In this document: positions 92 to 50,557 of the stretch, in pieces
How the letters are laid out: every line of letters starts with the position of its first letter
How positions within the stretch are numbered: position 1 is the first letter of the stretch
Virus record (IMG/VR): IMGVR_UViG_3300037424_000334
Coordinates: 1-53,663 of that record
Strand: one strand, 5' to 3'
DNA length: 53,663 nt
Source of the DNA: a virus
Taxonomy: Duplodnaviria > Caudoviricetes
The notes under the pieces: generated by a model
The model's input: the letters and a program-made list of their open reading frames with translations, nothing else
Database searches by the model: none
What the model was told of the DNA's origin: nothing
Translations under genes and position numbers: made by a program

Positions 92-164
92 TGCGGGGAG
101 GTTTGGCTAACCCAGCCGGTCTCATAAGCCGGTCACGACGGTTCGATTCCGTCCTCCGCAACCA
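92..164 (+). tRNA. tRNA-Met(CAT), initiator-like acceptor stem
   Basis: Acceptor TGCGGGG/CTCCGCA-A-CCA, anticodon arm CCGGT-CT CAT AA-GCCGG, TTCGA T-loop; 3xGC initiator motif incomplete. Confidence 0.85.
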
Positions 165-172
165 ATTCAAAT

Positions 173-247
173 GCGGGCGTGGTATTGGAGGCAGTGCCTC
201 GGAGTGCCACTCCGAAGATGCGAGTTCGACTCTCGCCGTCCGCACCA
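173..247 (+). tRNA. tRNA-Gly(GCC)
   Basis: Anticodon arm TCGGA-GT GCC AC-TCCGA; T-loop; encoded CCA. Confidence 0.9.
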
Positions 248-253
248 GACAAT

Positions 254-329
254 GCGTAGTTGGTCTTCGTGGCGAGGGCCTCTGGCTTCCAACCAGATGA
301 GGTGGGTTCGACTCCCACACTCCGCACCA
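254..329 (+). tRNA. tRNA-Gly(TCC)
   Basis: TCTGG-CT TCC AA-CCAGA; T-loop; CCA. Confidence 0.9.
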
Positions 330-334
330 AATAC

Positions 335-406
335 GGGCTTCCCTCCGGGGAGGAGTCGAGTCTTGCAAACTTGACGCGCAGGGTTCGACTCCCTGGAGGT
401 CCACCA
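335..406 (+). tRNA. tRNA-Ala(TGC), degenerate D-arm
   Basis: CGAGT-CT TGC AA-ACTTG; G3:U70 Ala identity pair; CCA. Confidence 0.85.
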
Positions 407-459
407 ATTCGTACACGGAATAGACGCTCCGTGTACTGACAAAAGGAGATTCGGGTTAC

Positions 460-535
460 GGGTGTGAAGCACGAAGGCAGTGCGCCAGTCTGTCTAACTG
501 GTTATGTGCGGGTTCGAGTCCCGTCACACTCGCCA
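460..535 (+). tRNA. tRNA-Asp(GTC)
   Basis: CCAGT-CT GTC TA-ACTGG; G73; CCA. Confidence 0.9.
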
Positions 536-539
536 ATAG

Positions 540-614
540 GGGCGGTTCGTATAGCGGCGAATACGGCTGTTTTACACGCAGCTTACGGGGGTTCGAGTCC
601 CTCACTGCCTACCA
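540..614 (+). tRNA. tRNA-Val(TAC)
   Basis: GCTGT-TT TAC AC-GCAGC; CCA. Confidence 0.9.
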
Positions 615-618
615 TCAC

Positions 619-694
619 AGGGGCTTGGTATAGATGGCTCGTGCCCGCGCCCGATAAGCGTGAGATGTCGGTTCGATTCCGGCAGCCCCAACCA
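619..694 (+). tRNA. tRNA-Ile(GAT)
   Basis: CGCGC-CC GAT AA-GCGTG (C33); A1:A72 mismatch; CCA. Confidence 0.85.
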
Positions 695-746
695 TCACCC
701 GCCGATAGGCAGCCGACAAGTTCAACGGGTCGGCGGGAGCGAATAC

Positions 747-835
747 GGAGTGGTCCGCTGTAGATGGACGGCACCCGGTCTCGAAAACCGGTGGGGTCCT
801 TACGGGCAGGGGTTCGAATCCTCACCGCTCCGCCA
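747..835 (+). tRNA. tRNA-Ser(CGA)
   Basis: CCGGT-CT CGA AA-ACCGG; long variable arm; G73; CCA. Confidence 0.9.
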
Positions 836-991
836 GTTCGGTCTCCCGCCAGCATCGGCCTGCGGGAGTTACGTCGGAGAGGCTTATCGCAAGGCTCCGA
901 GCCAATCATGAGAGTCTCGCACCGATGTGCCTGTGCGAGGAATCACAAGCACCCGAGGCGGGCCAAAAACGGCCTCGGACCCGTGACACAG

Positions 992-1078
992 GGACGGTTG
1001 CATGAGCGGCAAGTGGCCGGTTTGCTAAACCGAGGCAGCCGAAAGGCTGGGAAGGTTCGACTCCTTCACCGTCCGCCA
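992..1078 (+). tRNA. tRNA-Ser(GCT)
   Basis: CCGGT-TT GCT AA-ACCGA; variable arm CAGCC-GAAA-GGCTG; CCA. Confidence 0.9.
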
Positions 1079-1138
1079 ACACCGCACGAGATGCGGAGAA
1101 TGTGAGAGCTAATCGCCGCACGAGCGGCAAACGAATAC

Positions 1139-1221
1139 GGGTGCGTGGCGGAATTGGCATACGCGCTGTCTTGAGAAGGCAGTCCTCACGGTTGCAGGTT
1201 CGAGTCCTGCCGTGCCCACCA
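1139..1221 (+). tRNA. tRNA-Leu(GAG)
   Basis: CTGTC-TT GAG AA-GGCAG; Leu-type D-arm; CCA. Confidence 0.9.
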
Positions 1222-1225
1222 ATAT

Positions 1226-1300
1226 GCCGGTGTAGCTCAGATGTAGAGCAGCGCCTTTGTAACGCGACGGTCGGAGACTCAAGCACTTCCATCGGCACCA
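1226..1300 (+). tRNA. tRNA-Thr(TGT), degenerate T-arm (possible pseudo)
   Basis: Canonical TAGCTCAG..GTAGAGC D-arm, loop TT TGT AA, T-loop CTCAAGC lacks TTC; CCA. Confidence 0.7.
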
Positions 1301-1305
1301 GACAT

Positions 1306-1381
1306 GCCTTGTGTAGCTCAACGGTAGAGCAGCGCCCTCGTAAAGCGACGGCAGTGGGTTCAATTCCCACCCTCGGCACCA
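1306..1381 (+). tRNA. tRNA-Thr(CGT)
   Basis: Loop CT CGT AA; imperfect acceptor stem; CCA. Confidence 0.8.
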
Positions 1382-1386
1382 GTTAC

Positions 1387-1460
1387 GCCCCTGTCGTTCA
1401 GTGACAGGACTCCGCTTTGGTAAGGCGGATACCGGGGTTTGATTCCCTGCGGGGGCACCA
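1387..1460 (+). tRNA. tRNA-Thr(GGT)
   Basis: CCGCT-TT GGT AA-GGCGG; CCA. Confidence 0.88.
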
Positions 1461-1464
1461 ACAT

Positions 1465-1540
1465 GCGTGTGTGGCGAAACGGTAGACGCAGCGGTCTCAG
1501 AAACCGAAAGCTGGAGGTTCGAGTCCTCCCACTCGCACCA
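1465..1540 (+). tRNA. tRNA-Leu(CAG), short variable loop
   Basis: GCGGT-CT CAG AA-ACCGA; Leu-type D-arm GGCGAAACGGTAGACGC; A73; CCA. Confidence 0.88.
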
Positions 1541-1592
1541 ATTCGTATGCGATTTTGGCCATGAGAGGACCAGAATCGCATACAGACTAATC

Positions 1593-1669
1593 GCGACGGT
1601 CGTCTAGCGGCCAAGGACACTTGCCTCTCAAGCAAGAGACCACGGGTTCGAATCCCGTCCGTTGCTCCA
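1593..1669 (+). tRNA. tRNA-Glu(CTC)
   Basis: CTTGC-CT CTC AA-GCAAG; Glu-type TCGTCTAGCGG D-arm; CCA. Confidence 0.92.
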
Positions 1670-1705
1670 TCACTGTCACAAGAATGTATACATTCTTGGG
1701 ACAAC

Positions 1706-1782
1706 GCAGGGTTCGTCTAGCGGTCTAGGATGGTTGCCTTTCAAGCAATTAGACACGGGTTCGAATCCCGTACCCTGCCCCA
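1706..1782 (+). tRNA. tRNA-Glu(TTC)
   Basis: GTTGC-CT TTC AA-GCAAT; CCA. Confidence 0.92.
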
Positions 1783-1838
1783 AATTCTTGTGAAGGGTAC
1801 AGCAGAATAAACTTGTGGAGGTCCGACAGAATAGACTT

Positions 1839-1927
1839 GAACCGGTGGTCCGAGTGAACGATGGCAGCGGACTCTTAATCCGCCGAGCGCAAGCCCAACG
1901 CAGGTTTGAATCCTGCCCGGTTCTCCA
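1839..1927 (+). tRNA. tRNA-Lys(CTT) with long variable arm
   Basis: GAACCGG/CCGGTTC acceptor; GCGGA-CT CTT AA-TCCGC; ~16-nt variable region; U73; CCA. Confidence 0.85.
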
Positions 1928-1966
1928 ATCCGTAACGGTTTTTCAGGAGGTGTAATCGTTTTTCAT

Positions 1967-2054
1967 GAACCGGTGGTCCGAGCGAACGATGGCGGCGGAC
2001 TTTTAATCCGCAGGCGCAAGCCCAACGCAGGTTTGAATCCTGCCCGGTTCTCCA
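1967..2054 (+). tRNA. tRNA-Lys(TTT) with long variable arm
   Basis: Near-identical paralog of 1839-1927; GCGGA-CT TTT AA-TCCGC; V-arm GGC-GCAA-GCC. Confidence 0.85.
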
Positions 2055-2055
2055 C

Positions 2056-2138
2056 ACGAGCGTGGCTGGAATGGTAGACGCGGCGGGCTCAAACCCCGCT
2101 TCTTCGGAGTGCAGGTTCGAGTCCTGCCGCTCGTACCA
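2056..2138 (+). tRNA. tRNA-Leu(CAA)
   Basis: GCGGG-CT CAA AC-CCCGC; V-arm with TTCG loop; CCA. Confidence 0.9.
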
Positions 2139-2142
2139 ACAT

Positions 2143-2218
2143 ACCCCTGTAGCGCGCTGGATGCGCAGCGAGCTTCTAACTCGCATGGGAGTGGGTTCGA
2201 TTCCTACCGGGGGTGCCA
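2143..2218 (+). tRNA. tRNA-Arg(TCT)
   Basis: GCGAG-CT TCT AA-CTCGC; CCA. Confidence 0.9.
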
Positions 2219-2227
2219 ACAAGGGAC

Positions 2228-2256
2228 TTGACACGCGGCGAAGGCTCGTGTATGGT
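2228..2256 (+). promoter_or_regulatory. sigma70-type promoter internal to the tRNA array
   Basis: TTGACA-17 bp-TATGGT; the same two boxes occur at 51442-51470 (-). Confidence 0.75.
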
Positions 2257-2411
2257 TCGCGAATGCTAGGGCAAAAGTAGTCAACCGAAGGGACGACGAA
2301 ATCAAGGCATCCGGCAGCCGTGTCGCTGGGGAGCATGGTCTAGGGCAAGCTCAACCCCCTCAGACCACCTTTAACCCGACCCGCAAGGGTCATCTCGATG
2401 GAGTGGTATCA

Positions 2412-2486
2412 TGCGGCGTAGCACAGAGGTAGTGCGGCGTGCTGTTAACACGACGGTCGTAGGTTCGATCCCTACCGCCGCAGCCA
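2412..2486 (+). tRNA. tRNA-Asn(GTT)
   Basis: GCGTG-CT GTT AA-CACGA; U1:A72; G73; CCA. Confidence 0.92.
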
Positions 2487-2556
2487 TCGACTCGCTCAAT
2501 TCGCAGCGACAGCATCAACGATTTTGTTGGCGACAGTCCTATCGCTAACCCTGTTT

Positions 2557-2642
2557 GTCAGGGTGCGTGAGTGGACGAAACGGTCGCGCTGTAAACGCGA
2601 TGGCTAGCGCCCGCGTTGGTTCGAATCCAACCCCTTTCACCA
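2557..2642 (+). tRNA. tRNA-Tyr(GTA)
   Basis: TCGCG-CT GTA AA-CGCGA; long V-arm; two acceptor mismatches; CCA. Confidence 0.85.
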
Positions 2643-2650
2643 GTTTCAAT

Positions 2651-2725
2651 CCGGAAGTAGCTCAGCGGTAGAGCGGAGGTCTGAAAAGCCTCGCGTCGGT
2701 GGTTCAACTCCATCCTTTCGGGCCA
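2651..2725 (+). tRNA. tRNA-Phe(GAA)
   Basis: GAGGT-CT GAA AA-GCCTC; CCA. Confidence 0.92.
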
Positions 2726-2729
2726 ATTC

Positions 2730-2805
2730 CTCCCCGTAGCACAGCGGAAGCGCATCGCCCTCCGAAGGCGAATGGACGCAGGTTCGAATCCTGTCGGGGA
2801 AGCCA
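2730..2805 (+). tRNA. tRNA-Arg(CCG)
   Basis: TCGCC-CT CCG AA-GGCGA; C1:A72; CCA. Confidence 0.9.
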
Positions 2806-2808
2806 CAG

Positions 2809-2884
2809 AGTCCCGTAGCTCAGAGGATGAGCATTCGACTACGAATCGAAACGGACGTGGGTTCGAATCCCACCGGGACCGCCA
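2809..2884 (+). tRNA. tRNA-Arg(ACG)
   Basis: TTCGA-CT ACG AA-TCGAA; A1:C72; CCA. Confidence 0.9.
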
Positions 2885-2887
2885 TAA

Positions 2888-2962
2888 CGCTGGTTCGTTT
2901 AACGGCAGGACCTCGCTCTCTGAAAGCGATGATCGCGGGTTCGACTCCCCGACCGGCAGCCA
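2888..2962 (+). tRNA. tRNA-Gln(CTG)
   Basis: TCGCT-CT CTG AA-AGCGA; C1:A72; CCA. Confidence 0.9.
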
Positions 2963-2965
2963 CAC

Positions 2966-3035
2966 TGGGAGTACCAAGGCGGTGAGCGCGCCTTTGAAGC
3001 GTGCGAGTTGGGTCCGAGTCCCAAGCTCCCGGCCA
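2966..3035 (+). tRNA. tRNA-Gln(TTG), truncated D-arm
   Basis: CGCGC-CT TTG AA-GCGTG; 70 nt; T-loop TCCGAGT; CCA. Confidence 0.75.
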
Positions 3036-3077
3036 ATCCTGCGCATAGGAAGGAATGCGCAAGTTTGAACTGTCTAT

Positions 3078-3155
3078 GCTGCGCGTAGTCTAATGGCCAA
3101 GACGCCTGACTGTGAATCAGGAGAAGACGTGGTTCGATTCCACCCCGCAGTACCA
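3078..3155 (+). tRNA. tRNA-His(GTG), alphaproteobacterial type
   Basis: CCTGA-CT GTG AA-TCAGG; G1:U72, A73; CCA. Confidence 0.88.
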
Positions 3156-3159
3156 ATGA

Positions 3160-3230
3160 GGTGCGTGAGCCAGAAAGTGAGGCGGCAGCTTGCAAACCTG
3201 CTGAAGCCGGGGCGGTACCGGCACGCACAT
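3160..3230 (+). tRNA. tRNA-Cys(GCA), degenerate T-loop, no encoded CCA
   Basis: Loop TT GCA AA; U73; T-arm GCCGG-GGCGGTA-CCGGC. Confidence 0.65.
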
Positions 3231-3232
3231 CC

Positions 3233-3307
3233 GGGGGTGTAGCTCAACGGTAGAGCGGCGGCTTCCAACACCGCGCGTAGTGGGTTCGACTCCTACCTCC
3301 CTCGCCA
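3233..3307 (+). tRNA. tRNA-Trp(CCA)
   Basis: GCGGC-TT CCA AC-ACCGC; canonical D and T arms; G73; CCA. Confidence 0.9.
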
Positions 3308-37121: not shown

Positions 37122-37345
37122 ACGCCCTCCTTGTGGAACGTCGTTTCGGCTTTCAGCACTGTTGCGATCTCGAACAGACAGTCCTCCTCGAACAGCGTGT
37201 TCGGTGCCGGGAAGAACCCGTATTTGCGCCAGCCGGGGTGCCAGCGAATCTCGCCTAGCACATGCCCGCCGCCCCACACTTCCCAAATCTTGGTTTTGCC
37301 GGACGGGCTGTTGGACTTGAACTCGAATTTAAGGTAGTTCTTCAC
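37118..37345 (-). CDS. hypothetical protein
   Basis: KTKIW.V..LGEIRW...WRKY.F.P motif; GTG start. Confidence 0.65.
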   Translation of the reverse strand: MKNYLKFEFKSNSPSGKTKIWEVWGGGHVLGEIRWHPGWRKYGFFPAPNTLFEEDCLFEIATVLKAETTFHKEGV

Positions 37346-38238
37346 AGCCCCATGTCCTCCGCCGGTCGGAGGCCGTCGAACACGCACGAGCGCGGAACGT
37401 CGTAGCCTCCCACGTCAATGAATTTGATGCGCGCGTACATCTTCATGATGATGTTCTCGCGGTCGTTCCACATCTCCTCGCGGTCATACGCGGTGAAGCC
37501 GGTGCCGCATTCGAATGGTCGCGGCCACCGTGTCAGATCGCTGAGGATGAGCGTGCCCATGCGGCCCTTGCCGGTCTTGCCCGCCTTTGCGCTCGACCGC
37601 TTCGCCTTGCCGCGCTCGTCGCGCGTGGCCTCGTTGTTGTTCTTCATCTCCTCGGTCATGCCGATAATCATAGCCTCGGTGTTCTCCCAAGGCTTCACTT
37701 TCAGCATTCCCGCTTCCTTGAGCGTGGAGCGCCCGAACTTGTACGGCGCGTCGGCGCGGCGCAGGATGAGCCCTTCGTGGCCGCTCGCAACGGCCTTCTC
37801 GAACAGGGTCTTCACCTCGGCGGCGCTGTGGACGACGTACTGTTCGACGAGCACCGCCCAGTCCGGCAGCAGATTCAGGAGAAACAGATTGGACAAATGC
37901 AAATGCCTCTCCTCGAACGATCCCGGATGATCGTATTTGTCGAACACGAAGAACTTGAAGTCCACTACCGCATCAGCCTTCCGGAGCTTGCTCACGGTCG
38001 CGCGGAAATCCACTGCCCCGTTGCTGCCGACGACTCCGATCTCACCGTCCAGACCCGCCGGGAGCGTGCTCAGCAGCTTCTCGACGTGCAGTGTGGTGAA
38101 GCGCTTCATCGAGCGTGTGCGCGGTCCGTGAGGCGTTATCACGCCGCGCATCCCGTCCATCTTGGTGGATGCGAGGAGCGGATACGGCAGCGCGCTGAGA
38201 TCGACCGTCTCGTTGAACGCGAGCATTGGTTCCTTCAT
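37342..38238 (-). CDS. ATP-dependent DNA ligase
   Basis: KMDGMR (motif I), LDGE, FFVFD, EGLILR, GRST, KVK. Confidence 0.93.
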   Translation of the reverse strand: MKEPMLAFNETVDLSALPYPLLASTKMDGMRGVITPHGPRTRSMKRFTTLHVEKLLSTLPAGLDGEIGVVGSNGAVDFRATVSKLRKADAVVDFKFFVFDKYDHPGSFEERHLHLSNLFLLNLLPDWAVLVEQYVVHSAAEVKTLFEKAVASGHEGLILRRADAPYKFGRSTLKEAGMLKVKPWENTEAMIIGMTEEMKNNNEATRDERGKAKRSSAKAGKTGKGRMGTLILSDLTRWPRPFECGTGFTAYDREEMWNDRENIIMKMYARIKFIDVGGYDVPRSCVFDGLRPAEDMGL

Positions 38239-38414
38239 GATTCTCTCCAGTACGGCGGCGTTGGGATAACCATCTCGCCCGGTGCTGCCGGGCAGAGCCG
38301 GTCACTGCGGCCATCGTCGTAGCCGTTCGTATAGCCGTTGTTGTACGACTGAACCCCTACGACATTGCCAGCCATGAAGGCGACCGCGAGCCAGAGCACG
38401 ATGGTGAGTTTCAT
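38235..38414 (-). CDS. small membrane protein
   Basis: N-terminal TM, Y..GY..G repeats. Confidence 0.55.
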   Translation of the reverse strand: MKLTIVLWLAVAFMAGNVVGVQSYNNGYTNGYDDGRSDRLCPAAPGEMVIPTPPYWRES

Positions 38415-38782
38415 GCGAGTCCCCGCCGCGATGGATTGAGCATGACGCCTGTGTTCGGCTCGACTGCAACGGCGCGGTCGTCCCACAGTTCGATCATTGC
38501 AAAGTCCTTGATGTTCGTCACCTTGAGCCGCATACCGATATGCTCGTCGCACCACTCGTGGATTGCATTTGTGATCGCGCATTGTCCGGCTGCCGCAACG
38601 CGCGGATTAGACTCAGCGATACGCGCCGTGAAAATGCGAACCTCATGGCCCTCAGCGATCCAACGCTTTACGCGCTCGACCATGGCAGGGATCGGAGGGC
38701 CGACGTGCTTCGAACCTTTCCATTCGGTGTAGTGCGCTAGAGTACCGTCTAGGTCAACTCCGATCCATCCGATGCTCGTCAT
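38411..38782 (-). CDS. HAD-superfamily phosphatase (PNK 3'-phosphatase-like)
   Basis: VDLDGTLA, FTAR, K, WDDRA. Confidence 0.88.
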   Translation of the reverse strand: MTSIGWIGVDLDGTLAHYTEWKGSKHVGPPIPAMVERVKRWIAEGHEVRIFTARIAESNPRVAAAGQCAITNAIHEWCDEHIGMRLKVTNIKDFAMIELWDDRAVAVEPNTGVMLNPSRRGLA

Positions 38783-47546: not shown

Positions 47547-49688
47547 TCAGTCCTTCCGATAGCGAGTGCCGAACCATCCGGCAACTCCGATCACCATTCC
47601 AGGGCACCAAGTCGGAACGATGGACATCAAGCGATTGAACTCCTTCATGTCGCCGCCTGTCCCGATCTTACGCTCGCAAACAATTTCGTCATGCACGGTG
47701 AGGACGATGGGATAGCCCGCAGCTTCGACCCGGAACATCGCCTCGACCATGAGGTCGCGCGAGATAGCCTGCACGATGTTTTCGGTGAGCATCCCGCCGT
47801 AAGTCGAGATGCGGCCCCAGGCACCGCCACGCTTGTTGTCCTTGCCGTCGTAGTACAGAACGTACTTCGGCTTCCCGTTCCAGTTCCCGTCCTCTACGAC
47901 TTCAGGGTTGTAGTACCACAAACACCTGCCGTTTGGCAAGCGGCAAGCGAGCCAATTTCCAACCGTGCTGTTAACCACGGCGAAGGTGATGCCGCGATAA
48001 CTCTGCGCCTTGCCGGTGAGCACAGCGGCGATGGCCGTGTCCTCGATCTGGTACCAGAAGCGTACGATGTTCGGGTGGCCAGCGCGCCACGACTTCTTGT
48101 GGTCATCGACCTCCGCGTCTGTCCACTTGTCGCTGTCATCGAATTTGCGCCACGCGCCAACACCACCCTGGTAGCCGAACGCGAGTTCGCACGTCTTGCC
48201 GGTCTGGCGTTCTTTATGATGCGTTTTCTTTGTGAGACACGGATAGCCGAACACCGTTGAGGCCGTGGCGAGGTAGATGTCCTCGGAGCCTTTGTAGCCT
48301 TCCTTGCGGTCGATACCCGCGAAGGCGTCGAGCTTCCACTGTTCGCCCGCGACCCACGCGAGCACGCGCGCTTCGATGGCGGAGAAGTCGGAGACGAAGA
48401 ACTCGAAACCCGGCTCCGGTACGATGAAGCCGCGCAGCGCCGAGGCCAGCGCGTTGTACACGTCTCCGTAGATGTTTTCTACCCATTCCCAGTCAGATGT
48501 TTTGATGGCGTCGATAAGAATTTCCATTCCAATCGCGCCTGCGCCTTTGCGGTCCTTAAGGAACGGAGGAATGAGCACGCCGCTTTCGTCGCCGCGCGGG
48601 AAGTTCTGTGGCTGGATACCACGACCGGCCCACCGGCCCGTGCCTGCGCCGTGGTACATGAGGAGCCCACGAATGCGCCCATCAATGCAGCGCATCGAGA
48701 TGAACTTTTCGATCTTTGCGATGCTTGTCTTGCCGAGTGCTTGGCGGATTTCGAGCACACGGCGCACGACGGGACTGATGCGATCCTTTTTCTTGGGATC
48801 GAGCATGTCCTTCACGGTGTCAGCCGTGAGGTCCGAGAGATAGACACCCTGAGTCTCGCACCAATCCTTGAGACGGTCGCGCGTGTCGGCGGTCATCTCC
48901 TTGTCGCCAGTGATCTCCTTCAATTCGCGAAGCAGGTTCACCTCGACGGCTTTGCGGATCACGTCAGCGGCCATCACGGCTTCGATGTCGATGTAGACGC
49001 CGCGCTGATTGATTAGTGCGTCGAGGCACCAGACCTCGTATTCGTCTGACGGCAAATCGCGGATTGCGTCACCCAGCGCTTCCTCCGCGAGCACGTCTTG
49101 CTCGCAGTAGGCGTCGAGTTCCGCCATCAACAATTCGTCGTCGCACCAGTTCGGCCAGACCTTCTGCGGAATGCCCGCCTTGATCTCCGCCTTCGTGAGC
49201 TTCTTGATTTTCTGCGGCACGCACAGCTTCGAGATGAGGAACTTGCCGCGCTTGTCCTTGAGGATCGAGAGCCCGAGCGCGCGACCGGCTTTGTCGAGAT
49301 CGAGCGGAATGGAACGGTAGGCGCACGACGCCTGTGTGTCGGTCCAGTGCTCCGGCATCTTAACGCTGTACTGTTCCTCGATCATGTAGCGCCATACGGC
49401 TTTTTCGAATCCCGCGTTGTGCGCCTCGAAGGTCCAGCCCTCCTCGACGTACTTGCGCAGTTGATCCGGGAATGGTTCGCCGAGACGCGGACGCCAAGTG
49501 TGCATAGGCTTGCCCGCGCCGCGCTCCTTGTATTTGAGCACGAGGATGCGAGCGGACGGGTCCTGGCAGAAACGAACCGCGCCGACCTCTTTCAGATTGA
49601 GGACGCAGCGGATTTCGAAGTCGAGGATGATGCGTTTCGAATTGCGAAGCGCGGTCTGCCGGGCGGGATTTGCTGCAAAATCTACCAT
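47547..49688 (-). CDS. DNA polymerase, family A (SPO2/APSE-type)
   Basis: Exo DFE, HNA.FE, YCEQDV; TGRWAGR..QPQN; DFSAIEARV; RQ.GK..ELA.GY; VHDE. Confidence 0.95.
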   Translation of the reverse strand: MVDFAANPARQTALRNSKRIILDFEIRCVLNLKEVGAVRFCQDPSARILVLKYKERGAGKPMHTWRPRLGEPFPDQLRKYVEEGWTFEAHNAGFEKAVWRYMIEEQYSVKMPEHWTDTQASCAYRSIPLDLDKAGRALGLSILKDKRGKFLISKLCVPQKIKKLTKAEIKAGIPQKVWPNWCDDELLMAELDAYCEQDVLAEEALGDAIRDLPSDEYEVWCLDALINQRGVYIDIEAVMAADVIRKAVEVNLLRELKEITGDKEMTADTRDRLKDWCETQGVYLSDLTADTVKDMLDPKKKDRISPVVRRVLEIRQALGKTSIAKIEKFISMRCIDGRIRGLLMYHGAGTGRWAGRGIQPQNFPRGDESGVLIPPFLKDRKGAGAIGMEILIDAIKTSDWEWVENIYGDVYNALASALRGFIVPEPGFEFFVSDFSAIEARVLAWVAGEQWKLDAFAGIDRKEGYKGSEDIYLATASTVFGYPCLTKKTHHKERQTGKTCELAFGYQGGVGAWRKFDDSDKWTDAEVDDHKKSWRAGHPNIVRFWYQIEDTAIAAVLTGKAQSYRGITFAVVNSTVGNWLACRLPNGRCLWYYNPEVVEDGNWNGKPKYVLYYDGKDNKRGGAWGRISTYGGMLTENIVQAISRDLMVEAMFRVEAAGYPIVLTVHDEIVCERKIGTGGDMKEFNRLMSIVPTWCPGMVIGVAGWFGTRYRKD

Positions 49689-49706
49689 GCGACCTCAGCG
49701 GCAGTG

Positions 49707-49780
49707 TCAGGGAGGCGGGATTCGAACCCGCGTATCCGGTGTCCGAGACCGGAACTTTGACCAAGCTAAGCTACTCCCTG
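49707..49780 (-). tRNA. tRNA-Pro(CGG), no CCA, acceptor helix extended to 19 bp
   Basis: Minus strand CAGGGAG-TA-GCTT..AAGT-T-CCGGT-CT CGG AC-ACCGG-ATAC-GCGGG-TTCGAAT-CCCGC-CTCCCTG-A; C1:G72, A73. Confidence 0.88.
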
Positions 49781-49877
49781 ACACTGCCGCCGTGGTTAGA
49801 CGGCGGGGGCTGGGATGAAGCTCGTCGGGGTCAAAGCCTGAAACATTGCACGGACCTTCTAGGCAGCATGAGCCGCC

Positions 49878-49906
49878 TCTATACATTATCCTTCGCAACC
49901 TGTCAA
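49878..49906 (-). promoter_or_regulatory. putative promoter for the tRNA-Pro/polymerase leader
   Basis: TTGACA-17-TATAGA. Confidence 0.55.
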
Positions 49907-49934
49907 CCCAAATAAAGTACCGGCGCGGTCTGCT

Positions 49935-50126
49935 GTCGTCCCGGCTCTGACTCGTTCTGTCTGCTACCGCTTCAACGGACACGGGTGAGCCACCATTCCC
50001 GCCCACGGACTCTCATACGCCTTTCGGCACATAGGATGGCAGTCCCTAACTGAAAACATGCGGGAGTAGGATGCTACCACCCCAGGCTCCCTGTCCATCA
50101 CGCCGCCCGAGAGCGACTCCGACGAC
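49935..50126 (-). ncRNA. unassigned structured RNA candidate
   Basis: Nested pairings GTCGTC/GACGAC, GGACA/TGTCC, AGCC/GGCT, TCCCGC/GCGGGA, GGACT/AGTCC, GCC-GAAA-GGC. Confidence 0.45.
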
Positions 50127-50133
50127 GGACGTA

Positions 50134-50439
50134 TTACTGCGGCAGCACGCGCTGCGGTGCGCCGTGAAGCTCCATAGCCTGGACGCCGAGCGCCGTCACC
50201 TTGCGGATGTCATCGAGGCACGCAACGCCGCCGTCCGGTCGATACCATGCCGTGCGGGCGTCGGCCAGGACCTTCTCCATGCAAAGGATGAGTTCGCCCG
50301 GCTGCATTGCGGGACGGCCTTCGTGCCGCTTCGCGTTGCCGAGGCCGCGATCCTGATAGGTGCGCTCCGTGTCGAGAGCCGCGTAGACCTCTGCGCGCGT
50401 GGCGCGATAGACGCCGCCTGTGTTATTCACTTCGCTCAT
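50134..50439 (-). CDS. hypothetical all-helical protein (possibly MazG-fold)
   Basis: RBS AGGAGG; EVY.A.D.ER.YQD...IRK..AL.V..ME.HG. Confidence 0.7.
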   Translation of the reverse strand: MSEVNNTGGVYRATRAEVYAALDTERTYQDRGLGNAKRHEGRPAMQPGELILCMEKVLADARTAWYRPDGGVACLDDIRKVTALGVQAMELHGAPQRVLPQ

Positions 50440-50464: not shown

Positions 50465-50557
50465 CGACCATTCGGGGCCACATGCAAGTCTGTCCACACT
50501 TTAGCTCGTGACCTGTGGCAGTCTGCCGAGCATCTTGCATGTACCCCCGAATGATCG
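50465..50557 (-). ncRNA. long stem-loop RNA candidate
   Basis: ~23-bp stem CGATCATTCGGGG-G-TACATGCAAG / CTTGCATGTG-G-CCCCGAATGGTCG. Confidence 0.5.

Follow-up and report, generated by a model that had tools for sequence, protein, structure and literature searches.

Directly upstream of its family A DNA polymerase gene (polA), and in the same orientation, the phage of IMG/VR record IMGVR_UViG_3300037424_000334 carries a gene for a proline tRNA with the anticodon CGG and no encoded CCA. The sequences on either side of this tRNA are complementary and prolong its acceptor stem into a long leader-trailer helix, the trailer strand of which holds the Shine-Dalgarno (SD) sequence of polA. This helix is real and statistically exceptional. 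The window analyzed here is the whole linear record (53,663 bp, with a completeness estimate of 82%). The explanation that we favor, although only tentatively, is that the precursor tRNA and the polA mRNA would be made as one transcript, in which the helix would direct an unusual excision of the tRNA that also frees the polA SD. The features on which the argument depends are the following.

47547..49688, minus strand: polA, family A DNA polymerase of 713 amino acids (aa) (open reading frame (ORF) list; PF00476)
49692..49696, minus strand: SD of polA, GAGGU, with 4 of 5 bases paired in the precursor helix and A49695 facing A49793
49692..49706, minus strand: trailer arm CACUGCCGCUGAGGU, which together with A73 of the tRNA pairs with the leader arm and which holds the polA SD (direct reading, folds)
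49707..49780, minus strand: tRNA-Pro, anticodon CGG, without encoded CCA (ARAGORN, Rfam RF00005; minimum free energy (MFE) folds keep the cloverleaf)
49781..49796, minus strand: leader arm ACCACGGCGGCAGUGU, the last 10 nt of which pair perfectly with the trailer (direct reading, inverted repeat, MFE and centroid folds)
49787..49806, minus strand: upstream hairpin CCGCCGU-CUAACC-ACGGCGG (CCGCCGT at 49806-49800, ACGGCGG at 49793-49787), which competes with the outer leader arm

The tRNA gene and its leader-trailer helix

The tRNA was called by ARAGORN at 49706-49780 of the minus strand and matched Rfam RF00005 over model positions 1-71 of 71, spanning 49707-49780, with 65.2 bits (cut-off 29; E 1.8e-13). 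C1 lies at 49780 and A73 at 49707, followed by CAC, hence the gene lacks CCA, as had been noticed from the sequence alone. The positions that make the tertiary interactions of canonical tRNAs are U8, A14, G18-G19, and T54-psi55-C56; U8, A14, G18-G19, and a UUCGAAU T-loop are present here, both in the sequence and in the Rfam alignment. The tRNA also carries C1-G72, A73, and G35-G36, which we take to be the identity set of the bacterial prolyl-tRNA synthetase (ProRS). It folds on its own as a cloverleaf (-30.3 kcal/mol), and CCG, the codon read by the CGG anticodon, is the main proline codon of the phage (233 of 397 in 23 genes). By these features tRNA-Pro(CGG) looks functional, a true tRNA gene. 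Position 37 (49744) is A, not G, as it is in two unrelated viral tRNA-Pro(TGG) (L004, L005). Cellular proline tRNAs usually have G37, methylated by TrmD against frameshifting, and a phage tRNA-Pro with A37 may not need this modification.

Two candidate accounts of the gene's position were rejected. Against a replacement tRNA inserted into an older, now broken copy, there is no flanking tRNA fragment (the Rfam scan gave no second tRNA-like match in the flanks at E <=1), and no tRNA of the array described below has the acceptor sequence GCGGCAG. For a prophage attachment site, no integrase was found among the 46 ORFs scanned, and the tRNA is whole rather than just a 3' part.

The acceptor stem (49780-49774 with 49708-49714) runs on unbroken into ten Watson-Crick pairs (49781-49790 with 49707-49698), so that direct reading gives a perfect 17-bp helix between 49774-49790 and 49698-49714, made of 7 acceptor and 10 flank pairs. 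Beyond it come G49791-U49697, C49792-G49696, and an A49793.A49695 mismatch, after which the predicted fold adds ACC (49796-49794) with GGU (49694-49692) and arrives at 22 bp with one mismatch. The sequence-only reading had described a perfect 17-bp repeat, or 19 bp with the G-U and C-G pairs, which is exactly what the letters give; it had also let the helix end on the first G of the SD, and while the pairing does reach G49696, the predicted fold goes on and takes in 4 of the 5 SD bases. On the minus strand the locus reads, in order, CCGCCGU CUAACC ACGGCGGCAGUGU, tRNA-Pro, and then CACUGCCGC UGAGGU CGC AUG. The terminator reading of this structure was dropped because GAGGUCGCAUGG, which follows the trailer, contains no U-tract; the terminator scan made no call here.

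ARAGORN called 27 tRNAs in the window, of which 26 form an array at 92-3307 on the plus strand; the remaining one is tRNA-Pro(CGG). CCA is in place at the 3' end of 25 of the 26 array tRNAs, judged from the printed ends, in agreement with the earlier statement that nearly all array tRNAs encode it. In the last one, tRNA-Gln(CTG) (2889-2958, plus strand), an A is followed by GCCA, so that CCA stands one base off the 3' end given by ARAGORN; either the call has a wrong boundary or the discriminator region is odd. The same reading had called tRNA-Pro the only proline tRNA, some 46 kb from the array. This holds within the record (1 of 27 calls), but both the distance and the uniqueness are possibly artefacts of the fragment ends, because the record is a fragment (82%) whose first feature is the array, beginning at base 92.

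The flank pairing was compared among all tRNAs that ARAGORN called, those of the window and those of 213 fetched loci (1.32 Mb). Among these 42 tRNA calls, 21 showed 0 bp and 20 showed 1 bp, and only tRNA-Pro reached 12 bp (G-U counted). Independent locus genes number fewer than 15, because the 15 locus calls include two genes fetched twice (L215/L216) and the near-identical contigs L004/L005. By simple arithmetic, the chance of ten extra Watson-Crick pairs is about one in a million per tRNA. The arms were recovered as I3 among the window's best inverted repeats (23 nt, 91% complementary), and the two 16-nt arms are an inverted duplicate with 14 of 16 positions matching. The fold of the region has a z-score of -4.3 to -5.1, a value that no shuffle matched. 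Within the record, clamp and lack of CCA coincide: the sole tRNA without CCA at or next to its 3' end is the clamped one, and none of the 26 array tRNAs is clamped.

Proposed transcription and excision, and access to the polA Shine-Dalgarno sequence

The polA ATG (49688-49686) is taken as the genuine start because an in-frame TGA lies at 49697-49695 and the N-terminus is conserved, MVDF being common to the homologues P0002, P0006, P0009, and P0017 (alignment A1) and P0003 having M-YQVDF. Seven nucleotides separate G49696 from the A of this ATG, the very spacing given for the SD before. From A73 of the tRNA there are 18 nt to the ATG and 10 nt to the SD, and neither our own scan nor a standard consensus scan found a promoter-like site in or after tRNA-Pro. 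Because of this spacing and of the lack of a promoter, polA is probably transcribed through tRNA-Pro, and because of that, trimming of the tRNA 3' end would make the 5' end of the polA mRNA. The layout is that of tRNA-mRNA co-transcripts like metY-nusA-infB or tufB, with both genes on one strand and a spacer too short for a promoter or terminator. The candidate start of a joint transcript is the following site.

49878..49906, minus strand: promoter-like TTGACA-17 nt-TATAGA, 98 nt upstream of the tRNA (own scan)

The window has five sites with a perfect TTGACA, this one included. The sequence CTTGACA-17-TATGGT occurs twice, at 2228-2256 (plus strand, in the tRNA array) and at 51470-51442 (minus strand, in the gap upstream of orf247, a gene for a single-stranded (ss) DNA-binding protein); these two sites and the one before tRNA-Pro may define a promoter class of the phage. 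None of the sequencing runs that contain the region is recorded as RNA; X3 and X4 are labelled RNA-Seq but were rated as probably DNA.

We propose the following sequence of events. tRNA-Pro(CGG), lying in the 5' leader of polA, would be transcribed jointly with it, and before any processing its leader of 16 nt would pair with the 16 nt from A73 on. The helix would keep RNase P from the 5' end, and RNase Z or exonucleases from the 3' end that lacks CCA, so that the precursor would first have to be cut in the helix or unwound at it, most probably by a double-strand-specific endonuclease of the RNase III type. RNase P, 3' trimming, CCA addition by the host enzyme, and charging would follow, presumably in this order. 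The cut in the trailer would set the 5' end of the polA mRNA at most 10 nt upstream of the SD and remove the masking strand, with a probable gain in translation.

This proposal draws on earlier work with bacterial enzymes. Proximal pairing between leader and 3' end, even of 2-3 bp, acts as an anti-determinant that slows bacterial RNase P (PMC10731613); a leader sequestered in a hairpin turns off RNase P processing in E. coli (PMC8925977); and RNase P works better with CCA present on the CCA-less Pro-Ser precursor of T4 (PMC11143913). Because of these findings on the anti-determinant, on leader sequestration, and on the preference for CCA, a ten-pair clamp on a CCA-less precursor should block the usual enzymes. 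The metY tRNA, at the head of an mRNA in the E. coli metY-nusA-infB operon, is excised by RNase III (PMC6511841). A first cut of the RNase III type is favored here because of this precedent and because the 22-bp helix, continuous with the acceptor stem, is the sort of duplex on which RNase III acts.

The sequence-only reading had left two alternatives side by side, a tRNA-shaped switch linked to tRNA processing or to host defences and a pre-tRNA whose excision creates the polA mRNA 5' end. The geometry of 18 and 10 nt speaks for the second; no positive evidence was obtained for the first, to which we return below.

Processing would free the polA SD from the predicted pairing. For the precursors, the models give each of the four paired SD bases a probability of only 0.00-0.11 of being unpaired, and opening the SD costs 5.7-6.7 kcal/mol; the modeled cost is 3.1 kcal/mol once the leader is removed, and a discriminator cut lowers it to 2.1 kcal/mol, so that the precursors require about 3.6-4.6 kcal/mol more than the processed forms. 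Long helices ahead of SD sequences recur in the replication module, which we count in favor of the co-transcript explanation.

The clamp may instead serve tRNA biogenesis only, by protecting or chaperoning the CCA-less precursor and dictating its excision, in which case the overlap with the SD would be incidental. This is a serious possibility, although on the unlikely side. It agrees with the coincidence of clamp and missing CCA inside the record, and also with an SD masking that is weak and, in the models, partly relieved by processing. However, the pairing runs on past 10 bp right through the SD (G-U, C-G, A.A, ACC/GGU), which a clamp would not need, and a tRNA that folds so well alone requires no folding help.

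The values for the processed forms also bear on a 5' cap: RNase P would remove the leader, and the CCA-less tRNA would stay for some time on the polA mRNA as a base-paired, tRNA-shaped 5' end and shield it from 5'-end-dependent decay, with the SD open. The modeled opening cost of 3.1 kcal/mol applies precisely to this form, with the leader off and the tRNA attached, and a 3' end without CCA is a poorer context for RNase P and RNase Z (PMC11143913). RNase P itself should nevertheless be blocked by the 10-bp leader pairing, and the 16-nt leader fragment, once cut, would stay paired unless degraded. We consider such a cap very unlikely.

An extension of the co-transcript explanation, speculative and in our view doubtful, is that CCA-less viral tRNA genes would move as self-contained cassettes for which the clamp of one helical turn would serve as a portable excision signal, recognized by a double-strand-specific nuclease; here, the release of the tRNA would license polA translation and couple the supply of translation components to replication.

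Relatives of the polA locus

Homologues of the polymerase were found at 89% (P0002), 72% (P0003), and 63% identity and below, and the best polA DNA that was fetched has 62% identity. The fetched loci with a polA match (49 metagenome loci, 80 retained of 329 viral loci, and 80 retained of 595 genome-contig loci) number 209; in 161 of them the N-terminus is present along with 150 nt or more of upstream DNA. Gene order is kept in the relatives (exonuclease, orf247, gap, polA), with a gap of about 80 nt to about 1.1 kb. The cargo of the orf247-polA gap differs: L006 has an RNA ligase gene there, and L015 a tRNA-Met. In 3 of the 161 loci, an unrelated tRNA lies 1.1-2.1 kb upstream of polA. As judged from these loci, tRNA-Pro is specific to this lineage and not conserved beyond it.

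Several results weigh against the co-transcript explanation. A tRNA within 1 kb of polA is absent from all 161 loci. The 46 phage ORFs scanned against PHROGs yielded no RNase III gene. The standard consensus scan gives no promoter at 49878-49906, where the -10 element TATAGA ends in A, without the conserved final T. The predicted SD masking amounts to a modest 4 kcal/mol or so, since the helix frays at the end where the SD is located and part of the SD is paired again by a weak hairpin downstream; after the discriminator cut, the two G's of the SD are mostly paired with this hairpin (unpaired probability 0.06-0.10), and a cut at 49700 would bring no relief at all (5.4 kcal/mol in the model). 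Finally, the near relatives, contigs of near-identical DNA from the metagenomic runs X2 and X3, are unchanged in the parts of the helix that they cover, and a young insertion would look alike. The X2 contigs are identical to the window over 49570-49720 and 49788-50040, with 49721-49787 uncovered, and the X3 contig has 4 other letters and 1 gap over 49777-50072, none of them in 49777-49806; at the divergence of X3, less than one change is expected per 16-nt arm. Nothing was read into the end of the X3 contig, 3 nt inside the tRNA, or into the hole in X2, since depth is low and contigs do not report RNA ends. A joint from 49314 to 50154 in X2 was dismissed as coming from another organism.

The helix could be a neutral by-product of a recent insertion, in which the tRNA came with, or created, the inverted duplication and the pairing has had no function so far. 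The absence of the tRNA from all 161 relatives with upstream DNA, the varying size and cargo of the gap, the inverted duplication formed by the 16-nt arms, and the lack of variation in the covered helix parts that could show selection all agree with such an origin. Against it, there are no target-site duplications and no flanking tRNA fragments, and the arm 10-mer occurs in the window at chance frequency (5 matches with at most one mismatch, 6.2 expected). Moreover, a useless helix that blocks RNase P on the only known tRNA for the commonest proline codon should be selected against. We regard this origin as unlikely, though a serious alternative. A MITE-like mobile element (miniature inverted-repeat transposable element) was rejected as a candidate: the arms are inverted, but no direct repeat lies outside them, and searches of the viral and genome collections with parts of the tRNA body gave no further copy of this tRNA.

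Searches for the source of the tRNA gave little. Neither the anticodon arm and T-arm pattern in genome contigs of 185,579 species nor the D-arm and anticodon arm pattern in viral contigs (IMG/VR) had a match, and the T-arm and acceptor pattern retrieved two viral contigs, whose tRNA-Pro(TGG) is unrelated, encodes CCA, and lacks a clamp. Among phage records, blastn of tRNA-Pro found 3 at 75-78%. A donor copy was not found by these tRNA-part searches of the viral and genome collections. With 49300-50300 as the query, blastn against 50,697 phage records gave no match; tblastn of polA matched 1725 records, all below 60% identity; and polA as a single protein found nothing in viral contigs.

A conserved element lies upstream of the tRNA.

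49914..50051, minus strand: conserved non-coding element ending in a hairpin and a U-rich tract, directly upstream of the promoter-like site

It is 86% identical over 141 nt to positions 1668-1807 of L006, its 3' part of about 58 nt being identical, whereas polA is only 62% identical between the two. One of its helices shows a compensatory change, from U.G to A-U. In L006 the element of about 140 nt precedes the ligase gene, and in the window it is followed by the promoter-like site and tRNA-Pro; because of this correspondence, tRNA-Pro appears to sit in a cargo slot, and on the evidence of the alignment the element is the mark of its upstream border. It had no Rfam match, and its 31-nt core had no match in the viral and genome-contig collections; possible identities are a small RNA, a structured leader, and a recombination junction. 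The ligase gene in the slot of L006 (1821-2369; polA identity 62%) belongs to PF09414 (E 4e-14), and both slot cargoes, the tRNA-Pro cassette and the RNA ligase, concern tRNA supply or repair.

Strong stem-loops are found just upstream of the polA SD in several relatives: a helix of about 20 bp enclosing 54 nt in L054 (2381-2479, z -4.0), a 16-bp hairpin with a U-tract in L055 (2424-2461, z -4.2), and terminator-like hairpins with U-tracts in L008 (2435-2475), L056 (2426-2451), and L006 (2400-2430). Stable structure before polA may be a habit of the family, with a tRNA inside only in this phage, and in general polA expression may depend on read-through or on processing.

The upstream hairpin raises the question of competing folds. 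It had been pointed out from the sequence that the upstream CCGCCGT can pair instead with the 5' ACGGCGG, and both reading and folding confirm that this second fold exists. The hairpin alone has -12.4 kcal/mol, and it is the fold predicted for as long as transcription has not reached the trailer. The whole fold has -68.4 kcal/mol with the long helix and -59.5 kcal/mol with the hairpin enforced, a difference of 8.9 kcal/mol. Because a six-base stretch of the leader arm beside the hairpin is free, the trailer should displace the hairpin quickly.

These folds are the basis of the tRNA-shaped translational switch that the sequence-only reading had suggested, in which hairpin and long helix would set polA translation through the processing machinery, through ProRS or another tRNA-binding protein, or through a tRNA-cleaving defence nuclease. 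The two folds are mutually exclusive, and the hairpin forms first and leaves the SD free; with the tRNA body 10 nt from the SD, a bound protein might also clash with the 30S subunit. Nevertheless, the gap of about 9 kcal/mol and the free stretch of leader, which should permit displacement, argue against a balance of comparable folds, and masking of about 4 kcal/mol is little to switch. The arrangement is not conserved, the tRNA being absent from the 161 polA loci, and nothing points to a ligand or sensor. No regulatory RNA family matched at E <=1, except for a sub-threshold Tymovirus tRNA-like element (25 bits, cut-off 40), and no defence or anti-defence gene was identified beside tRNA-Pro. 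These comparisons gave no support to a cis-acting switch, and we consider it the least probable of the alternatives.

The other genes of the record identify a tailed phage by their PHROGs matches (terminase, portal, tape measure, and tail genes). Its replication module, on the minus strand, comprises a DUF2800 exonuclease, the gp2.5-like ssDNA-binding protein (orf247), a 101-aa ORF, and the family A DNA polymerase. In the same module, a second long helix (50465-50488 with 50534-50557, minus strand; 24 nt, 88% complementary, 45 nt enclosed; fold z -4.2) stops, on the upstream side, some 25 nt before the AGGAGG and ATG belonging to the 101-aa ORF (50134-50439), and it may be another processing or regulatory stem of the module.

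Elsewhere in the array, two tRNA-Lys with the anticodons CUU and UUU (1839-1927 and 1967-2054, plus strand; 89 and 88 nt) both have a long variable arm and, in the ARAGORN drawing, a weak D-stem of three pairs. Such a class II shape is unusual for lysine tRNAs, and their identity and charging may differ from what the anticodons suggest. An ATP-dependent ligase (PF01068; DNA ligase in PHROGs) adjoins a small protein (37342-38238 and 38411-38782, minus strand) with weak PHROGs matches to phosphoheptose isomerase (6.8e-10) and polynucleotide kinase (2.5e-7); the two could be a nucleic-acid repair pair.

Significance and comparison with known systems

If the clamp directs excision, tRNA maturation in bacteria or phages would have a route on which the first event is cleavage of a leader-trailer helix, and not the action of RNase P, RNase E, or RNase Z; our searches of open-access text found no such helix-first route for phage tRNAs. 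The locus would then show a phage placing a tRNA gene in the leader of an essential gene without silencing it, and tRNA processing would possibly serve to time or license polymerase synthesis. In practical terms, it would be a compact natural design in which one transcript releases a tRNA and activates the ribosome-binding site downstream. If the helix is an insertion scar, the locus is merely a newly acquired tRNA in a variable slot.

In bacterial pre-rRNA, a stable RNA is enclosed by a long helix formed between its two flanking sequences, the processing stalk of RNase III. A helix of about two turns enclosing a stable RNA is likewise found here (17 bp perfect, 22 bp with the mismatch). The present case differs from those stalks in that a 74-nt tRNA is enclosed, the helix continues the acceptor stem, the trailer strand carries the SD of an mRNA, and cleavage is only predicted.

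The arrangement of the genes resembles that of E. coli metY-nusA-infB, where a tRNA also lies co-oriented and directly upstream of a protein gene. Regnier and Grunberg-Manago in 1989 reportedly placed the RNase III sites of metY in hairpins downstream of the tRNA and not in a leader-trailer helix. The metY cut is also said in that work to start mRNA decay rather than to unmask an SD, and metY to encode its CCA. Co-transcription at metY-nusA-infB has been seen, and an endonuclease cut there frees the tRNA and sets the 5' end of the downstream mRNA (PMC6511841), whereas for the phage locus we infer both.

Like tRNA-Pro(CGG), the proline tRNA of the T4 Pro-Ser precursor is a phage tRNA without encoded CCA, and it relies on host 3' trimming and CCA addition (PMC11143913). 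Unlike the tRNA described here, the T4 tRNAs form a dimer with a 3-nt spacer in a tRNA cluster; they lack a leader-trailer helix, and no protein gene follows them. Natural pairing between leader and 3'-RCCA in E. coli comprises 2-3 bp (PMC10731613), as compared with 10 perfect pairs, or as many as 15 altogether, in the phage. RNase P riboswitches (PMC8925977) are synthetic and ligand-driven.

A search of the open-access literature found no description of leader-trailer clamps on phage tRNAs. Both tRNA-mRNA co-transcripts and leader-trailer processing helices are known kinds, and in this phage they would be combined, together with the polA SD, in a single helix.

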